IMG/VR virus record: IMGVR_UViG_3300037155_000096
Origin: a virus
Reading direction: 5' to 3' (one strand)
Length of the DNA stretch: 64,000 nucleotides
Part shown: positions 35,878-44,932 of the stretch, piece after piece
Layout: each line of letters opens with the position of its first letter
How positions within the stretch are numbered: position 1 is the stretch's first letter
Position numbers and translations under genes: made by a program
The notes under the pieces: model-generated
The model's input: only the letters and a program-made list of their open reading frames with translations
Told to the model about the DNA's origin: nothing
The model's database searches: none

Positions 35878-36729
35878 TCACTTAATGAAACTACTGATTG
35901 GAACTGAGACGGAAATACCCGCCCATTTTGTGTCTGTAACTAAAAACCATGCACCAATCGCCTTATACTGGATCGTAAGACCGTAAGCTATGGAAGCTCC
36001 TGTAAGCGATACTGACTTTACCATCTCTGTGCCTGTACCGAGTAGTCCGCCGACTTTCAGATTATCTAAGAATCCGGGTTCGATGCAGTTACTAGCCGAC
36101 GGAGCAAAAAGCTTCTCATCTACTTCGGTATTCAATGTCGTCACTGTTATCCCAGGCGTCTTGGGTTCAAAGATTCCCATAACCTGCAAGGTCTCGGGAT
36201 TTCTTGCTATCTTAATCTTCCCTTCCAGTGGTCTGAATTTCAGGTTCAACTTCGTGAAGCTGTTAACCGGGGCTTTCAAATCGATGACAGTAGTTCCGCT
36301 TACACCCACCATTAGAGTATCGTATTGTGGAAACGTGTACGTAGCTTTCGTACTGTCAATGGTGGTGCTGCCACCCTTTATAATAATCGCCAAATCGTTA
36401 ATTTTTAAGCCCAGTTCCTGTATGACTGCCAGTTGATATCCTTGCTTGCGTAACGATTCTCTGAGCTGCGTGTCTGTTTGCTGTTGCAAGTCATACAAGT
36501 AACTGAGTTTCTCATATTCTGTCTTACCCTGATCGTTAATTACCTGCCTCAATGAATCCAGGCTTGCCTGAAAGTTCACATTGCTTACTTTACCAGCCCG
36601 TTCTACCTCAGCCTTCAATGACTGATTCTGCTTATATAAGTAAACGCTTACCGATACCAATGCGAGGAATACACCCACCAGAATTGCTGTGGTAATAACT
36701 TTCTGTTTCAGAGTCATTGCTAAAATCAT
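35878..36729 (-). CDS. Membrane-anchored coiled-coil protein (possible spanin-like lysis accessory)
   Basis: N-terminal TM helix, coiled coil, beta-rich C-terminus; lies downstream of the endolysin. Confidence 0.45.
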   Translation of the reverse strand: MILAMTLKQKVITTAILVGVFLALVSVSVYLYKQNQSLKAEVERAGKVSNVNFQASLDSLRQVINDQGKTEYEKLSYLYDLQQQTDTQLRESLRKQGYQLAVIQELGLKINDLAIIIKGGSTTIDSTKATYTFPQYDTLMVGVSGTTVIDLKAPVNSFTKLNLKFRPLEGKIKIARNPETLQVMGIFEPKTPGITVTTLNTEVDEKLFAPSASNCIEPGFLDNLKVGGLLGTGTEMVKSVSLTGASIAYGLTIQYKAIGAWFLVTDTKWAGISVSVPISSFIK

Positions 36730-36968
36730 TTCACCCTTCCGTGCTTGGTTCCTAAAATTATTTCCGTTCCCTCTTTGTACCAGCTATGTCCGTTCTGACA
36801 TGTTCTCTCATTTATTCTGCATTTGCAGGTACCCACATATTTTTCTTTGCATTCAGGACAGTAGTCGATATTTCCAATAAGCCCCCGAGCTTCTGCTATG
36901 CGACTGGCTTGACGCCTTGTCTCAAGTGCCACTATCGTAGCAAATAATGTCTGCCTAAGTTTTCTCAT
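36726..36968 (-). CDS. Small Cys-rich (zinc-ribbon-like) protein
   Basis: YCPEC...TCKC...CQNGHSW. Confidence 0.5.
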   Translation of the reverse strand: MRKLRQTLFATIVALETRRQASRIAEARGLIGNIDYCPECKEKYVGTCKCRINERTCQNGHSWYKEGTEIILGTKHGRVK

Positions 36969-37558
36969 TTCGCGCTCTGCTGGGTTGGTTTCTGTATCGA
37001 TGTTTTCGAATATGTCACTGGCGTGAAGTACACTATTCTGAAGTAATTAGCTGGCTGTATGTATCTTGTTCTCTTATAAACTCCATCTCCGTCTGACTGA
37101 CTGCCAGCCGTACCGGAAGACGTATTCCCTTCAACCGTGGATCCACTGGATTTATTCCAATGAAGCACAAATCCTGTATGCCCGTGTATCGTAGTTCCAT
37201 GCCGGAATATGAATATGCTTCCGTCGGGTACTTGTTTAACTCCGATAAGAACATCTTTCGCTGCGATACTGGTCTTGGTTATGTAATTCACCGCCAGACC
37301 GGATCTCATCTTGGGCAAATCGACTTGCGCAGTTGTCAGATTAAAACCGACAAACGCTCCACACCAAGAGTCTCCCTTATGGAGTCCTACCGAGTGAAGG
37401 AACATTTCTACTGCCACACCATCATTATGCCCGGTCTTTTCCTTTACGCCGACAAATGATAATGCGGACTGAATGTGCTTAGCCTGTCCGAACGTCGGAT
37501 TAGGAAGAAGCGATACAAGCAGCAGCAAGAATACAATTCGACATGAAAAATATCGCAT
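36965..37558 (-). CDS. CHAP-domain endolysin with a predicted signal peptide
   Basis: VGVKE..GHNDG, SWCGAFV (catalytic Cys), HGHTGFV (His), TVEGNT; hydrophobic N-terminus ending TFG-QA. Confidence 0.85.
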   Translation of the reverse strand: MRYFSCRIVFLLLLVSLLPNPTFGQAKHIQSALSFVGVKEKTGHNDGVAVEMFLHSVGLHKGDSWCGAFVGFNLTTAQVDLPKMRSGLAVNYITKTSIAAKDVLIGVKQVPDGSIFIFRHGTTIHGHTGFVLHWNKSSGSTVEGNTSSGTAGSQSDGDGVYKRTRYIQPANYFRIVYFTPVTYSKTSIQKPTQQSAK

Positions 37559-37787
37559 ATGCTATCGGTTCCTTTGTTATTAACGCCATCGTGTCTACTT
37601 CAGGACATGCGAAATGGTCAAACGCCCATACGATTGTCACTGCTATGACATACTTAAAAATGCCTACTGCAAACGAACTGTATTCGATTGCATAACTGAA
37701 CGTGAACCATACTCCCAGACCGGAGATTAAGCCCATTATCAGAAACGTCCTGAGTGCCGCAAATGCTTCCTTATTAAATGCTTTCAT
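37500..37787 (-). CDS. Putative holin (about 3 TM helices)
   Basis: 95 aa, hydrophobic segments, immediately upstream of the endolysin. Confidence 0.6.
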   Translation of the reverse strand: MKAFNKEAFAALRTFLIMGLISGLGVWFTFSYAIEYSSFAVGIFKYVIAVTIVWAFDHFACPEVDTMALITKEPIAYAIFFMSNCILAAACIASS

Positions 37788-37795
37788 TACCTATC

Positions 37796-38137
37796 CTATT
37801 TCGTTGAAAAATATTTTACTACTGCCATCGTGATTCCACCGGACAAGAGAGCCACTATGAATCCCCATACTCCCAGAATCACTTTTAATTTCAAATCCTG
37901 ATTACTGAACTTGAGTTCAACAGCTGCAACAGCCTTATTGGTTTCCTTAACCTCATCCAGAGCCGCTTTCTTGCTATCTTCGATCTTCTTTTCAAGATCA
38001 ATCCTCTGGGACTCAATTTTCTTCCATATCTCTGTCTGGGCGGTATCCAGTCTCTCCAATTCACTAAGAATCAGGCGACGGTACTCCCCAAAATGGTCTC
38101 TACTGAGATCAACTGTTTCCTGCCCGTTTTCTAACAT
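37796..38137 (-). CDS. Coiled-coil protein with a C-terminal TM helix (XhlA/holin-like)
   Basis: Heptad-rich N-terminus, then VILGVWGFIVALLSGGITMAVV. Confidence 0.6.
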   Translation of the reverse strand: MLENGQETVDLSRDHFGEYRRLILSELERLDTAQTEIWKKIESQRIDLEKKIEDSKKAALDEVKETNKAVAAVELKFSNQDLKLKVILGVWGFIVALLSGGITMAVVKYFSTK

Positions 38138-38139
38138 TT

Positions 38140-38835
38140 CTACCCTGTTATCGTATTCTTAATGGCGAACAATATTTCCTTGGCGACTCCGCAAGTTGCA
38201 CAGTTCAATTTCGGATCTGTCAAAGCTGTCTCCAGGATACCCTTCATACTGTTTATGGCTGACGCCACTTTTTTCTCATTACGACTGTTCTTCAGATAAA
38301 AACTAATGCCCGTTGCAACCGTTCTCATAAGGTTCAGTTCATATTTGTCCCACGCCTCAGCATCTTCATAATCACTTATGCCGACGAAACCGATATATTC
38401 TTCTTTTATAAACAAGGGAATCAATAAGGATGAATTCAGTTCAAAATTCTCAAGGATGGAACTCCACGGCTCTGCACCGGGAGAGGGAACGGAATGTACG
38501 ATCTGGTTCGATGATAATTTTTCATATAACAAGTCTGCTTCATCGTAAGCAAAATGTTCTACTGCCGGTATTGTGATTTCTTCGGAAAGCCACATTCCCT
38601 GGCGGGAGGCGTATATTCTACCTTCATAAATGAGGTTCGTAAACACGAATGCCTTGGATACATGCGTGACTTCCCCAAGTTTTTTCAATGCTGCTGGAAA
38701 GACGCTCCCACCATTTGCCAGAAGTATATTCTGGATCTCTACTATTGCTCTTAAATACTTATCATGTTTTGCCAGCTCCAGATCTTTTTTATCCAGTTCC
38801 TCGGCAAGCGTCCTTAACTGTTCAAGATTCGACAT
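38140..38835 (-). CDS. Stand-alone GAF-domain protein
   Basis: ALKKLGEVTHVSKAFVF...SSLLIPLFIKEEYIGFVGISD...WDKYELNLMRTVA matches GAF domains of sensor kinases; no output domain. Confidence 0.8.
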   Translation of the reverse strand: MSNLEQLRTLAEELDKKDLELAKHDKYLRAIVEIQNILLANGGSVFPAALKKLGEVTHVSKAFVFTNLIYEGRIYASRQGMWLSEEITIPAVEHFAYDEADLLYEKLSSNQIVHSVPSPGAEPWSSILENFELNSSLLIPLFIKEEYIGFVGISDYEDAEAWDKYELNLMRTVATGISFYLKNSRNEKKVASAINSMKGILETALTDPKLNCATCGVAKEILFAIKNTITG

Positions 38836-38987
38836 GGTGATTTCCTTTCGGCAGGGCGTACTATCTTAATCTTATCGCTATTCATCCCAAACCCACTTTC
38901 TGATCTCTGCTAATCGGACTTTACATTACCTCATCTACTTTACATTCTCATCTATTCCGACTTCACCATAGAATTACACAACGTGAG

Positions 38988-39019
38988 CAAATTAAATACT
39001 ATAAGAGCCTGTTACAACG
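38988..39019 (-). promoter_or_regulatory. Candidate promoter CGTTGTAAC-N16-TAATTTG upstream of the GAF-lysis operon
   Basis: TTGTAA and TAATTT separated by exactly 17 nt; same motif and spacing at 44073-44104. Confidence 0.55.
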
Positions 39020-39057
39020 GTCACGCCCCCTTTTAAGCGTCATTATGGACATTTCGC

Positions 39058-40647
39058 TTATCTTCTTGCCAATAAGTTGAACCCTGCGGAACTGTTCGCT
39101 GCACTTACATAATACTCTCTTATGATTACTATTCCTGAACCACCCGAGCCGGGCCATCCAGCATCGCTATTAGCTCCGCCGCCAGTGGCAAATTCACCAT
39201 CTGTTGCTGCGGTGTCAGATTCTTCCGGAACTTCGCCTCCCATTTCTCCCATGCCTCCGCCACCTTGAGCGCTGTTCTGAGTGCCACCTTGATATGGTCT
39301 TCCTCCTCCCTGTCCACCACCCGAGAATAACTGTCCATCTGATTCGCCAAATGCTCTTGTCGTTGTACGCTGCCCGAGTCCCCCGAAGATTGCGCCATTC
39401 TCTCCATCATTGCCATTCCAGCCGCCACTTCCAGCTCCCCCGGCTCCACCTGAGCCCCCGTCACCGCCTTTTCCATAATTCCATACACCAATAACGACAT
39501 ACCCCGAAGAATCACGGACTATCGAACCTATGTGTTCTTTCGAAGGGACATTCTGCCACTGTTCCCAATCGGCACCTATTTGATCTGAACGGAACACACC
39601 ATAACTTTCTGTCCCGATCAAAAACCCTATCCCAGTCCATGCTACCGAGGTCACTTTAATATCGGTTAAATTCGAGTGAATCCAACTTTGTCCGGCTTCC
39701 GTAGAATAGTAGATTCCATTGCCAGTCCCTGCCAGAAGACTACGCATTCCGTCATAGAATAGAGTATAGCACGACGAAGTCCCATTCATCAAATACCAGT
39801 TAACGCCATAATCTACGGAACTGAGAATACCTTCTTGAGCTCCCGCATACAAAATTGCGCCTTGTCCAGCGATTACTTGATAAAACAGGGGTTGCCAGGC
39901 ATTAGGGTTACTATTAGCCTGCACCCATGAAGTGCCATTATCCAGAGAACGATATAGACCTGTGCCGTGTGTAGAAGCATACATATAATATTCACCGGAA
40001 GTGAATGAAGTAACTTCAAGAAATTGTGTGACTCCATTATCTTTTGTCCACGACGCCCCATTATTTATGGACGTATATATGCCCTGACGAGTGCCGACAA
40101 AGATTTTATTGCCAACGAAGAACCAGCAGTTGATATTCACTACCCCGTTAAATCCATTATTTATCTGTGTCCAGCTTGAACCGTGGTCTGAGGATCTCCA
40201 TGCTCCTTGATTATTTACTCCGACATAGATATAACCTCCGTTAGCGGCAAGAGAGTTCACTTGTGAGTATCCCAGCCATCCGTTCTGAGAGAAAGTCATA
40301 CCATCGTCATCTGATCTAAGGATTCCATATCCTCTACCGGCGCATCTTCCTCCTGCCGCGAAATATGGTCCGAACGAAGATTGAGCGCCATTTTCAGTGT
40401 CATCAGCGTATCCGCCTTCACCAACCATTGCGACATAATCTGTCGCAGGCGTGACAGGTATATTCGTGAATGTCCTTGTAAAACCACCACCGCCACCACC
40501 GCCAGGAGCAAGATTGGTTACTCCCCAGCCTCCGCAACCGCCTCCGCCAGCCAAAAATACATCAACCGAGTTAACATCTGCTGGGCACGTCCATGCGTTA
40601 TATCCAGTGCTATCAATAACCGTGGTTCTTTTTAGAACTCTGCTCAT
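39058..40647 (-). CDS. Glycine-rich phage fibre/appendage protein with an inserted BNR-repeat beta-propeller
   Basis: N-terminal WTCPADVNSVDVFLAGGGGCGG and C-terminal GGSGIVIIR Gly-rich domain; central repeats SxDxGxSW (RSSDHGSSW, SINNGASW, SLDNGTSW, SVDYGVNW, STEAGQSW). Confidence 0.75.
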   Translation of the reverse strand: MSRVLKRTTVIDSTGYNAWTCPADVNSVDVFLAGGGGCGGWGVTNLAPGGGGGGGFTRTFTNIPVTPATDYVAMVGEGGYADDTENGAQSSFGPYFAAGGRCAGRGYGILRSDDDGMTFSQNGWLGYSQVNSLAANGGYIYVGVNNQGAWRSSDHGSSWTQINNGFNGVVNINCWFFVGNKIFVGTRQGIYTSINNGASWTKDNGVTQFLEVTSFTSGEYYMYASTHGTGLYRSLDNGTSWVQANSNPNAWQPLFYQVIAGQGAILYAGAQEGILSSVDYGVNWYLMNGTSSCYTLFYDGMRSLLAGTGNGIYYSTEAGQSWIHSNLTDIKVTSVAWTGIGFLIGTESYGVFRSDQIGADWEQWQNVPSKEHIGSIVRDSSGYVVIGVWNYGKGGDGGSGGAGGAGSGGWNGNDGENGAIFGGLGQRTTTRAFGESDGQLFSGGGQGGGRPYQGGTQNSAQGGGGMGEMGGEVPEESDTAATDGEFATGGGANSDAGWPGSGGSGIVIIREYYVSAANSSAGFNLLARR

Positions 40648-41177
40648 AAGATCAGACTCCTGTTCTCTGGAGAAACATATTCTTCCCCATAGGCTTCGAA
40701 TAATTCCTTTTCGCTGTTTACTATAATGCGTTGTCCCAACTCATCAAAGAATCCTGTGCGAGACAACCACTTGCCCTTGGCATTTATTTTAGTCATCAGA
40801 ACTTCATTATAATCACGGCTCCCGGTGATAAATTGAACCTTGTGCCACCAACCATTTTCCTCTGCAAAATAAAATTCTATTTTGTACCCAGCGGGCATGG
40901 TTATGCTGATTACATTGCCGCATGGCATAGTCTCCATTTTTGCGACGATATTATTTTCTTTCGCACTCGACATAATCTTGGTCAACACCTCCCTGTCTTT
41001 CTCCCAGATGACAATATCGCCGTCCCCGCAGGTCTCACATTTTCTTCTTATTGAGCCGACCACCAGATATTCTAACGCCGGAGTGCCCGTGTGTTCGGAA
41101 TACTCCTTAATCAAATCTTCTATGATTCTGCAGTGCGCTGCTGCTTCGGCAAGTGGAATTCTTGTTCCTCTTGACAT
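40644..41177 (-). CDS. polX: Minimal family X DNA polymerase (palm + C-terminal domain only)
   Basis: VVGSIRRKCETCGDGDIVI (GS-x-RR...GDxD), FITGSRDYN, SEKELFEAYGEEYVSPENR; 177 aa. Confidence 0.85.
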   Translation of the reverse strand: MSRGTRIPLAEAAAHCRIIEDLIKEYSEHTGTPALEYLVVGSIRRKCETCGDGDIVIWEKDREVLTKIMSSAKENNIVAKMETMPCGNVISITMPAGYKIEFYFAEENGWWHKVQFITGSRDYNEVLMTKINAKGKWLSRTGFFDELGQRIIVNSEKELFEAYGEEYVSPENRSLIL

Positions 41178-41178
41178 C

Positions 41179-43377
41179 CTAAACCCCTACACCAACTGAC
41201 ATCAAGTTCCATTTACCTAAACTTGCAAACCATTCGAAAAGCATAGTCATATTCTTCCCAAGTGTTGTGGTCGTTGGCAGAGCGGTTCCAGCTTTTGCCA
41301 CATAATTAGTCCCAAAAGAAAGTGCCCGAGCAAACCCATTGTCCAATAATCGTATTTCCATGAGTTCCCCATCAGCAGGTATGCTATAAGAGTGATTGGC
41401 TATTGTCAATGGCTGTGACACCGCCGTTACATCGAATATATCGAATGTTGCAATCTCGGGCGTAAGACTCGCGCCTACACTATTCACAGTGTAGACTCTC
41501 GGCTGCTTTCTTTTATTTGTTAAAATATTCGTGCTTGAAATGGTCGGGACCACTATGCCACCCATCGTAATTGCATTAGTGCTTTCGATATCAGTAGCCC
41601 ATAATTTCGCTAACCTTGAGCCCGTCGCCCCTATGGTTTGCGGAGTTGCTTGAGAAACTAAAATTGCACCTGTCAGGGACGTTAAATATCCCGCGCTCGT
41701 CCAGGGCGTTCCGACTACCAGTGTTCCTGATGTCGAGGGTAACGTCAAGACAATGTCTGTTCCGGCGACCACGTTGGGCTGTAAGGATACATTCCCGGAT
41801 GTCGAACCCGCTAAACGAATCACACCTAATTTTGTGCCTGCCAGTCCTAAATCTAATAGTGCGCCCGGATTAGCGTTCCCTACGCCCAGATTACCACCAT
41901 TGAAAAACGAGCCGCCGCTTTTTGCTAACTTTATAAAATTAGTGCCGCCATCGGTCAGTGCAAAAAATGCTTCCAGAAAAGTATAATACGTAGCACCATC
42001 TCGACCGATATATAGCTGATCGTAGGCTGGCATTATGTCCCAGTAATGTGTGTCTGCGCTTTGTTCAAGTCTTAGACCGCCAGAACCATACGCCACGCTT
42101 CCTGCCTTAAAATGGAGCTTCCCTGTCGGGTTGCTTATACCGACTCCAATATTGCCGGTTGCTATGACATTACTTACATCAAGATCTGTTGCCCATAGTT
42201 TCGTTAAACGATTTGACGAGTTTCCTATGGTCTGTGGCGTAGTCTGAGCGGTTAATACGGCTCCTGCGAGGGAAGTCAGATAAACATTCGTATCTAATGC
42301 AAAAGTATTCGCACCCGTCATCTTTACAAATGATGTCGATGCGTATGTAAGTCCCGCCAATGAAGACAAACCCACCGAAACTGCTTGCCTGCCCGAGAGA
42401 TCTACTGTCAAGTGAGAAGCTGCTGTGCCCGCACCCGACAAAGGACTATCTACCACAACTCCTGTTAAATATGCACCCGTTCCCTGTTTCGTTGCCAACT
42501 GATCGTATAATAATTTTGCACTCGGATACTGAGCATCGGTGGAAGAGCCTGAAATCGAAGACACCTTCCTGGCGACATCTTCCGGAACATAAGTAATGTT
42601 CGAGTTAAGCGTATTCCAATTCGCAGCTGTCTGACCTGGGTTATTCGTATTGGCTATTATCGAGTCACCTATCTGGATTGCAGATCCGCCCAAAGTTCCG
42701 GCAGTGGAAATAACCCACATGTCGCCTTTCATAATTGCGCCAGCCACTCCTGAACCCGTGCTGGTCAGAGAAGTCGGATACGCATTCCCAGAGGCATTAT
42801 AACCGCTACGATAGTTGAGCAACCCGCCTATGAGATTATCTGCGTAATTTTTAATTGCTTTTACACTCGGGTACTTAGTATCGGAGCCACCATCCCCTGC
42901 TATATCTATTGACTTGTTGGAGAGATCTTCTTTCCCAGCGATATCACTCGCTAACAGATAAGAGCCGGCATTTTGTTTTCCATTCCAGTTTGATTTATCC
43001 GCGTCTGTTACCAGCCCATGTGTTGAGTCCGCCGTTAATTGAGACAGTGCAGTCGGCAATGTCTGATCTCCAGTGTTGCTACCGCTCAAAGTGGTTATAC
43101 CGAGCTTGCCCTTAATTGATTCTGTGGTTTCAACGTTTGCGGATATTCTGTCGTCAACTTTCTGATCAGTATAATACTTATGAGTCTCACCTTCAGTGAT
43201 GTCATCAGTATTCAGACCGTTGACCAAAATAAGGGAGTCGGCTGTGATACTACCGGATACGTTGAGATTGGCTTCAAGGAGAACGCTTTCTCCCACCATA
43301 TACATGAGTGCCGAGTTCGCATTATCCACGCTATAAAATTTTAGATGATTTCCATCGAATAATGAAACGGGCTTCAT
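41179..43377 (-). CDS. Tail fibre / receptor-binding protein
   Basis: Gly/Thr/Ser-rich modules typical of fibres (GNIGVG, GNLGVG, DITEG..NKYYT-like), internal 33-aa repeat. Confidence 0.75.
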   Translation of the reverse strand: MKPVSLFDGNHLKFYSVDNANSALMYMVGESVLLEANLNVSGSITADSLILVNGLNTDDITEGETHKYYTDQKVDDRISANVETTESIKGKLGITTLSGSNTGDQTLPTALSQLTADSTHGLVTDADKSNWNGKQNAGSYLLASDIAGKEDLSNKSIDIAGDGGSDTKYPSVKAIKNYADNLIGGLLNYRSGYNASGNAYPTSLTSTGSGVAGAIMKGDMWVISTAGTLGGSAIQIGDSIIANTNNPGQTAANWNTLNSNITYVPEDVARKVSSISGSSTDAQYPSAKLLYDQLATKQGTGAYLTGVVVDSPLSGAGTAASHLTVDLSGRQAVSVGLSSLAGLTYASTSFVKMTGANTFALDTNVYLTSLAGAVLTAQTTPQTIGNSSNRLTKLWATDLDVSNVIATGNIGVGISNPTGKLHFKAGSVAYGSGGLRLEQSADTHYWDIMPAYDQLYIGRDGATYYTFLEAFFALTDGGTNFIKLAKSGGSFFNGGNLGVGNANPGALLDLGLAGTKLGVIRLAGSTSGNVSLQPNVVAGTDIVLTLPSTSGTLVVGTPWTSAGYLTSLTGAILVSQATPQTIGATGSRLAKLWATDIESTNAITMGGIVVPTISSTNILTNKRKQPRVYTVNSVGASLTPEIATFDIFDVTAVSQPLTIANHSYSIPADGELMEIRLLDNGFARALSFGTNYVAKAGTALPTTTTLGKNMTMLFEWFASLGKWNLMSVGVGV

Positions 43378-44072: not shown

Positions 44073-44104
44073 CAAGTTAGAAACTGAAGATGTCCGTTAC
44101 AACG
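44073..44104 (-). promoter_or_regulatory. Candidate promoter CGTTGTAAC-N16-TAACTTG
   Basis: Second copy of the motif at 38988-39019, with identical 17-nt spacing, in an intergenic gap. Confidence 0.55.
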
Positions 44105-44145
44105 CAGGACGGCCATATTAAGTGCCAATAAGGACAGTTGGGAAG

Positions 44146-44853: not shown

Positions 44854-44932
44854 AATTTAATCTCATCAGGCAGTGTCCCTAACACGCGGTTCTACCGTGT
44901 TACACGGACCGCGGGTTGGGGACATTCCTGAG

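Follow-up and report, generated by a model that had tools for sequence, protein, structure and literature searches.

In phage phiKZ, the holin gp142 has a single transmembrane domain (TMD), a large cytoplasmic N-terminal domain and a short outer tail (class IIIB), and the product of the neighbouring gene, gp143, is a soluble regulator that accelerates triggering through the cytoplasmic domain of gp142 (Manohar et al. 2026, PMC12894885). Lysis inhibition in T4 involves the holin T, the periplasmic antiholin RI, which senses superinfection, and the cytoplasmic antiholin RIII (PMC11413866, PMC8385771), the last of which delays triggering (PMC8385771). In Bacillus subtilis, the holin-like lytic toxin SpoIISA, which has three transmembrane (TM) segments, is controlled by a cytoplasmic domain of GAF fold, bearing an N-terminal helix, that dimerises (PMC3057836). 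Here we describe a 64,000-nucleotide stretch of viral DNA (IMG/VR virus record IMGVR_UViG_3300037155_000096; hereafter the window), in which the gene for a stand-alone GAF protein of 231 amino acids (aa) heads a run of genes for a 113-aa single-TM protein, a 95-aa holin-like protein and a predicted 197-aa endolysin, and we propose that the GAF protein may regulate lysis through the 113-aa protein. To our knowledge, the lysis-timing regulators known so far (T4 RI and RIII, P1 LydB, ICP1 ArrA and phiKZ gp143) are phage-specific and lack a recognisable ligand-sensing fold. What would be new here is a cytoplasmic holin regulator, a kind that is already known, carrying a sensor domain, and we regard this as an evenly balanced possibility.

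The locus resembles that of phiKZ in that a soluble cytoplasmic protein is encoded in a lysis cassette beside a small single-TMD protein; it differs in that the soluble protein is a GAF domain, in that the GAF gene comes first and in that there is an extra holin-like gene with three TM segments, whereas gp143 is not described as a sensor domain. No sequence similarity of the cassette proteins to gp142 or gp143 was found, and BLASTP aligns the 113-aa protein with gp142 over 10 TM residues only (E 0.10). With T4, the locus shares a T4-like phage background and a soluble protein acting on a single-TM holin, the latter proposed here from the genes alone; in T, the large domain is part of the holin itself and faces the periplasm, while the GAF protein is a separate molecule in the cytoplasm. 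In T4, gene t lies after the tail-fibre genes, as the GAF gene does here. SpoIISA differs in that a single chain holds both its GAF domain and the membrane part, in that the GAF domain has a small unstructured antitoxin, SpoIISB, to neutralise it, and in being chromosomal; it has no sequence relation to the phage proteins. The preliminary description of the locus had stated that no characterised example was known, which needs qualifying because the phiKZ regulator (PMC12894885) and T4 RIII (PMC8385771) have been described, neither of them with a sensor domain; literature searches on GAF together with holins and on phage-encoded GAF domains found no phage example.

The GAF protein and the genes that follow it

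The source phage is uncultured, has a genome of about 179-185 kb and recurs, with identical gene order, in several metagenomes from soil and from peat. Its T4-like affiliation comes from the baseplate wedge protein, a distant homologue of gp6. The genes of the lysis region all lie on the minus strand, and its features are as follows.

38140-38835, minus strand: stand-alone GAF protein, 231 aa (Pfam and AlphaFold2).
37796-38137, minus strand: 113-aa single-TM protein, the proposed membrane partner (hydropathy and spacing).
37500-37787, minus strand: 95-aa holin-like protein (hydropathy and overlap with the endolysin start).
36965-37558, minus strand: 197-aa predicted CHAP-type endolysin (PHROG, TIGR02594 and CHAP matches).
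36726-36968, minus strand: 80-aa Cys-rich, zinc-ribbon-like protein (five Cys, 4-nucleotide overlaps on both sides).
35878-36729, minus strand: 283-aa protein, a possible spanin-like component (N-terminal anchor and weak PHROG match).
38836-38975, minus strand: conserved leader of about 140 nucleotides (nt), a candidate promoter/operator (block conservation with the diverged relative L011).
39011-39051, minus strand: element TGTCC-N28-GTTGTAAC, just past the stop codon of the upstream gene.

The GAF assignment is firm. Pfam profile PF01590 matches residues 45-177 of the protein with 32.1 bits against a cut-off of 22.4, and an AlphaFold2 model built from 20 sequences (mean pLDDT 87.3, pTM 0.79) comprises a helix (2-39), an alpha/beta GAF core (46-155) and two further helices (164-206 and 213-230), the core showing the antiparallel sheet packed on helices that defines the fold. 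A Pfam scan revealed no kinase, cyclase or other output domain, and the protein has no hydrophobic segment. Its sole cysteines, C212 and C215, form a CxxC motif that is modelled in the turn between the two C-terminal helices. The protein is therefore what the preliminary description had taken it to be, namely a stand-alone coiled-coil, GAF and helical CxxC protein without output.

An exhaustive profile search with the GAF protein returned 2266 relatives at E<=0.001, with 261 representatives at E<=1e-10. Among the best 150 relatives listed, nearly all are long proteins, besides two fragments of one diverged phage copy, and the ten that were scanned with Pfam are mainly GAF-bearing sensor kinases, with one GGDEF-EAL protein. 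Cellular relatives are 25-35% identical, and the matches take in both flanking helices (query about 10-200), which in these relatives join neighbouring sensor domains; the phage protein thus has the appearance of a single GAF unit that was excised from a sensor array together with the helices on either side. It belongs to the same sequence family as the GAF modules of bacterial multi-sensor kinases and GGDEF-EAL proteins, linker helices included, and differs from them in standing alone, without a transmitter.

The coiled-coil/TM protein that had been noted 2 nt after the GAF gene is borne out as a 113-aa open reading frame (ORF), translationally coupled to the GAF gene. Hydropathy divides it into a charged, helical N-terminal part of about 85 aa, one hydrophobic stretch (80-111) and a 5-aa tail, and no signal peptide is seen. 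With the predicted N-in orientation, this topology would be class-IIIB-holin-like. Neither the 113-aa nor the 283-aa protein has homologues outside the lineage, and neither the 113-aa nor the 95-aa protein matches a Pfam or PHROG family.

The 95-aa gene begins 8 nt beyond the 113-aa gene and overlaps the start of the endolysin gene by 59 nt. The claim that it is holin-like stands on size, three hydrophobic stretches and position, although not on any family match; being small, with three predicted TMDs and adjoining the endolysin gene, its product has the topology of a class I holin, and we describe it as a predicted holin-like protein. Its relatives (74-80% identity) retain the position before the CHAP gene, and its nearest ESM clusters are viral small membrane proteins, which we take as a lead only.

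The 197-aa gene probably encodes the endolysin that had been noted. Its product matches TIGR02594 (6.4e-8) and two endolysin families of PHROG (1.7e-13 and 1e-12), has a Leu-rich N-terminus of the Sec signal-peptide type and is 34% identical to an annotated Streptomyces phage endolysin. Its own CHAP match (1.7e-4) scores 22.4 bits, under the cut-off of 26, and the homologue in a related fragment (L018) gives an unmarked CHAP match; Cys66 and His127 are invariant in three homologues. The fold model, built from a 3-sequence alignment, has a pLDDT of 30 and is unusable. Beyond the endolysin, the 80-aa, 283-aa and 78-aa genes are joined by 4-nt overlaps or a 7-nt gap, and a metallophosphoesterase gene lies 13 nt past the 78-aa gene. 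The 283-aa protein has a TM segment (6-34), a coiled coil and a beta-rich C-terminal part, together with a weak match to PHROG Rz-like spanins (0.0077), and is possibly a spanin-like component. PDB sequence searches with the endolysin, the 283-aa protein and the 371-aa protein of another phage locus (L023) gave no match, and PADLOC and NCBIfam scans added nothing further.

Conservation and recurrence of the pair

Copies of the GAF gene were sought in phage records, using both the region and the protein, in a word index and by a metagenome scan. The phage-record searches gave no match, and the other two returned the same phage and one diverged fragment only. This fragment, L011, holds the sole diverged copy of the GAF gene in the collections, at 72.5% DNA identity. 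Its order is a homologue of the window's 184-aa gene, a hairpin with a T-run that can be read as a terminator in the printed sequence, about 140 nt aligning with the 3' part of the window's spacer, the GAF gene, 1 nt and a homologue of the 113-aa gene. The 4.4-kb tail-fibre block that precedes the GAF gene in the window (39058-43377, encoding a 732-aa protein, a PolX-like protein and a 529-aa Gly-rich protein) is missing from L011 (312-530), so that the two phages differ here by an indel. It is the leader and the membrane gene that accompany the GAF gene, and not the fibre genes. The order 113-95-CHAP-(80)-283 is also kept in two further fragments, L018 and L019, the latter apparently a continuation of the L011 phage; the 80-aa gene is absent from L018, where the CHAP gene runs straight to the 283-aa homologue.

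In L011, the GAF gene (531-1228) is split by one frameshift into ORFs of 167 and 62 aa. Because both parts are still conserved, the frameshift is probably a sequencing or assembly error. The comparison with L011 indicates purifying selection on the GAF core (pN 0.14, pS 0.71), with the CxxC motif retained, and downstream of the frameshift pN is 0.18 against a pS of 0.45. The dN/dS ratio is about 0.07, with synonymous sites near saturation. The GAF protein is also identical across many metagenome samples.

The pairing of a GAF protein with a small membrane protein recurs in other phages. When IMG/VR was scanned for the subfamily motif, 18 stretches fitted the pattern; a hidden Markov model (HMM) derived from the cellular domains identified 11 of these, in four lineages, as true members (E 1e-30 to 1e-35). 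In all four lineages, the GAF gene overlaps or abuts, and is translationally coupled to, a gene for a small coiled-coil protein with a single TM segment. In L020, a 367-aa protein with an uncharacterised N-terminal domain and a C-terminal GAF domain is encoded by a gene that is overlapped by that of a 180-aa protein, whose coiled coil, C-terminal membrane helix and short basic tail repeat the design of the 113-aa protein. The other three lineages (L022/23/29/31/35, L024/36 and L027) encode PAS-GAF proteins of 360-375 aa without output. Just upstream of each PAS-GAF gene, and overlapping it by 1 or 4 nt, lies a gene whose product, of 122-124 aa, has a coiled coil at its N-terminus and a single membrane helix. 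These pairs share with the window the GAF subfamily, the lack of output, the coupled coiled-coil single-TM protein and a late region near tail-fibre genes; they differ in an extra PAS domain and Cys clusters, in having the membrane gene first and in a central TM segment, whereas the window protein is GAF-only, has a C-terminal CxxC hairpin and belongs to a pair that heads a holin/endolysin run.

The three PAS-GAF lineages share homologous partners and were counted as one event, so that there are three independent architectures: PAS-GAF, L020 and the window lineage. A rough control covered 319 ORFs from phage loci of about 250 kb in total; 6 of them were partner-like by a strict definition, and all six lie beside GAF genes. 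The locus in the window is the clearest link so far between this recurrent sensor/membrane-protein pair of uncultured T4-like phages and lysis genes.

The L020 contig is a different T4-like viral contig, in which (L020:5455-8531) the genes after that of the 180-aa protein encode a membrane protein of 304 aa and a protein of 170 aa; the surroundings include a gp2-like DNA end protector and genes for HNH endonucleases. The 184-aa protein encoded upstream in the window shows no significant similarity to the 122-aa neighbour of the PAS-GAF genes.

Proposed mechanism and alternatives

The precedents of phiKZ, T4 RIII and SpoIISA lead us to propose that the GAF protein dimerises and, by binding the helical domain that the 113-aa protein exposes to the cytoplasm, gates a membrane lesion upon a change in ligand, metal or redox state, thereby setting the time of lysis; binding, signal and direction are all inferred, and we give the proposal an even chance of being correct. 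The 113-aa protein would sit N-in and tail-anchored, and the dimer would contact it through the flanking helices. A change in the state of the GAF domain or of the CxxC motif, caused by a small ligand, a metal or redox, would then shift the readiness of the membrane partner, which, alone or with the 95-aa protein, would form or permit the lethal lesion that admits the endolysin. We favour a restraining, antiholin-like role until the signal arrives, although the sign is a guess. Whether the 113-aa protein is indeed a class-III-like holin, or a holin partner, bound by a cytoplasmic GAF sensor is a question on which our judgement is equally divided. If the proposal is true, phages would borrow bacterial sensory modules for deciding when the host bursts; the input signal of a GAF-based regulator would be approachable by ligand screens and by pocket or CxxC mutants. 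The cassette, with five or six genes, is compact, clonable and testable.

The preliminary description had interpreted the region as a ligand-gated lysis module. Of this interpretation, the link between the GAF and membrane genes and the link between the pair and the lysis genes gained support (L011, L018/L019 and the four IMG/VR lineages), whereas ligand binding by the GAF domain is not supported. An NKFDE-type motif for binding cyclic mononucleotides (cNMP) is absent in a regular-expression search. The GAF core contains no Cys that could serve for bilin binding, and a PDB structure search places the similarity to bilin-binding GAF domains (phytochromes and cyanobacteriochromes) at the level of the fold only.

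Several observations weigh against our proposal. Six polar residues, which are 66-92% conserved among 152 cellular domains of the 'GFIGFDxC' subfamily (multi-sensor kinases), are replaced in the phage protein (R24H, R61K, E81M, D154S, C156Y and R160E). Among them are two nearly invariant residues of the GFDxC motif, its Asp and its Cys, and with the six residues the pocket may have lost the ability to bind its ancestral ligand; the hydrophobic and Gly/Pro framework of the subfamily is retained, and L011 shares the phage-type residues. Synteny with the endolysin is documented in one shallow clade only (at least 70% DNA identity), which alone shows only modest conservation. The tight packing runs past the lysis genes into the metallophosphoesterase gene, so that packing by itself defines no lysis unit. 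Upstream of the GAF gene, searches for sigma70-like, TATAAATA and Bacteroidota -7 motifs revealed no promoter; what stands of the promoter that had been suggested for the gene is the conservation of the adjoining leader in L011. A survey of phage GAF genes, which had been put forward as a check, found a coupled single-TM partner in every lineage and no endolysin beside the pair within loci L020, L023, L024 and L027. No homology was detectable between the membrane partners of one architecture and another, and hhalign matched the 113-aa family and the PAS-GAF partners in the TM segment alone (31% probability). Finally, the evidence consists of sequence and models.

The alternative that survives best, although we consider it rather unlikely, is that the two proteins are a real sensor/effector pair with another late membrane function, such as superinfection exclusion, a block to incoming DNA, or membrane remodelling or energising, and that the lysis neighbourhood is incidental. 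T4-like phages scatter their lysis genes, the sister pairs have tail-fibre and other late genes as neighbours and no endolysin was seen in their loci, and the packing in the window reaches non-lysis genes, all of which this explanation would accommodate. However, the pair in the window abuts a holin-like gene and an endolysin gene and is kept there in a diverged relative while the upstream side changes, and there is a proven class of holin that combines a single TM segment with a large cytoplasmic domain (PMC12894885).

The ancestry of the GAF protein raises a second alternative, in which it would be a decoy of a host sensor kinase, forming mixed dimers with a host multi-GAF kinase and silencing or hijacking its pathway. 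Outside the phage lineage, its relatives are all GAF modules that belong to multi-sensor histidine kinases or to GGDEF-EAL proteins, and they match across the flanking helices. Yet the best cellular identity, only 25-35%, leaves no room for a recent donor or a target of mimicry, the polar residues that the subfamily conserves are lost, and the recurrent coupled membrane partner is left unexplained; we therefore think this quite improbable. Some GAF domains bind cyclic nucleotides and phages do encode signal sponges, so that a counter-defence sponge for a host immune or second-messenger nucleotide also comes into consideration. It is made very unlikely by the lack of an NKFDE-type motif and of a PADLOC match, by the retained signalling helices and the coupling to a membrane protein, and by the position of the gene in the late structural/lysis region and not behind the early-promoter motif of the phage (TTAGCAYG-N4-TTGT, absent upstream of the GAF gene). 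That part of a host kinase gene was captured and is now functionless or merely tolerated would agree with the split copy in L011 but is scarcely credible given the strong purifying selection, which extends past the frameshift, the identity of the protein across many samples, the well-folded model and the occurrence of the frameshift on a single short contig of low-coverage type, where an assembly error is the likelier cause.

Returning to the proposal of a sensor that acts on a membrane partner, we may extend it, tentatively, beyond the window: the output-less GAF and PAS-GAF proteins of T4-like phages would be a family of sensors clamped to the coiled coils of single-pass holins or holin controllers, timing lysis by a metabolite, metal or redox signal within the host, which would make them an intracellular counterpart of T4 lysis inhibition, and the resemblance of T-type holin domains to GAF would mean that sensor gating is old in T4-like lysis. 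This generalisation is possible but doubtful at present. A structural comparison provides a lead in the same area. In a Foldseek search of viral models (BFVD), the GAF model matches annotated T-type holins, including those of Serratia PS2, Proteus Stubb and phiP4-3 (E 8e-6 to 2e-5), as well as unnamed 200-260-aa proteins of GAP32, RaK2, Tenacibaculum and Polaribacter phages (E 2e-7 to 8e-4). These matches between models suggest, as a lead only, that T4-type holins carry a GAF-like regulatory domain. The literature searched did not link holins with a GAF-like fold, and a solved chain of the T4 holin T was not among the best 50 matches listed in either PDB search, which is uninformative either way. 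At the level of sequence, the Phage_holin_T profile (PF11031) has no match at E<=10 among the GAF, 113-aa and 95-aa proteins and none in a 77.8-kb fragment of the phage, and Tenacibaculum phage pT24, one of the structural matches, has no GAF or T-holin match.

Leader, upstream block and distant features

Read 5' to 3' on the minus strand, the genes upstream of the GAF gene encode a 3617-aa, a 235-aa, a 184-aa, a 732-aa fibre-like, a 177-aa Pol-beta-like and a 529-aa glycine-rich/BNR protein. The last of these genes ends at 39058, and a 222-nt spacer separates it from the GAF gene. It is the last ~140 nt of this spacer that are conserved in L011 (72% overall DNA identity), where they follow the hairpin and T-run. 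The leader contains a 19-nt tandem repeat (38918-38954, found by TRF), matches no Rfam family and has no significant RNA fold (z 0.55); covariation is weak and comes from two sequences. Since the tail-fibre block is absent at the corresponding site of L011, it is a swappable host-range module, flanked by the terminator-like hairpin that follows the 184-aa gene and by the leader of the GAF gene.

The exact pattern TGTCC-N28-GTTGTAAC occurs at 39011-39051 and at 44096-44136 (minus strand), that is, in two copies against 0.02 expected. Both copies sit just downstream of the stop codons of late genes, and a related sequence is present at 44854-44932; the element is absent from the L011 spacer.

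Within the tail-fibre block, the 177-aa protein (40644-41177, minus strand) is a minimal Pol-beta-like polymerase of palm and thumb only, with a GSIRR...DGD motif, encoded between two tail-fibre-type genes; in size and design it recalls Pol X of African swine fever virus (ASFV). The adjacent Gly-rich gene of 529-533 aa is called as two genes (71 and 416 aa) in some metagenomic copies (L001/L002/L004 8316-9778, compared with L003/L005/L006/L008), which could reflect variation or an assembly error in the glycine-rich stretch.

Far from the lysis genes, a low-GC island on the plus strand (6653-27332, GC 0.30-0.38) is a defence island. Encoded there are an Mrr-type nuclease, a short Argonaute of 668 aa (Piwi) whose partner is a SIR2 protein of 403 aa, and a BREX set consisting of a BrxC-like protein (1144 aa), a PglX-type methylase (1077 aa), PglZ (771 aa) and BrxL (681 aa).

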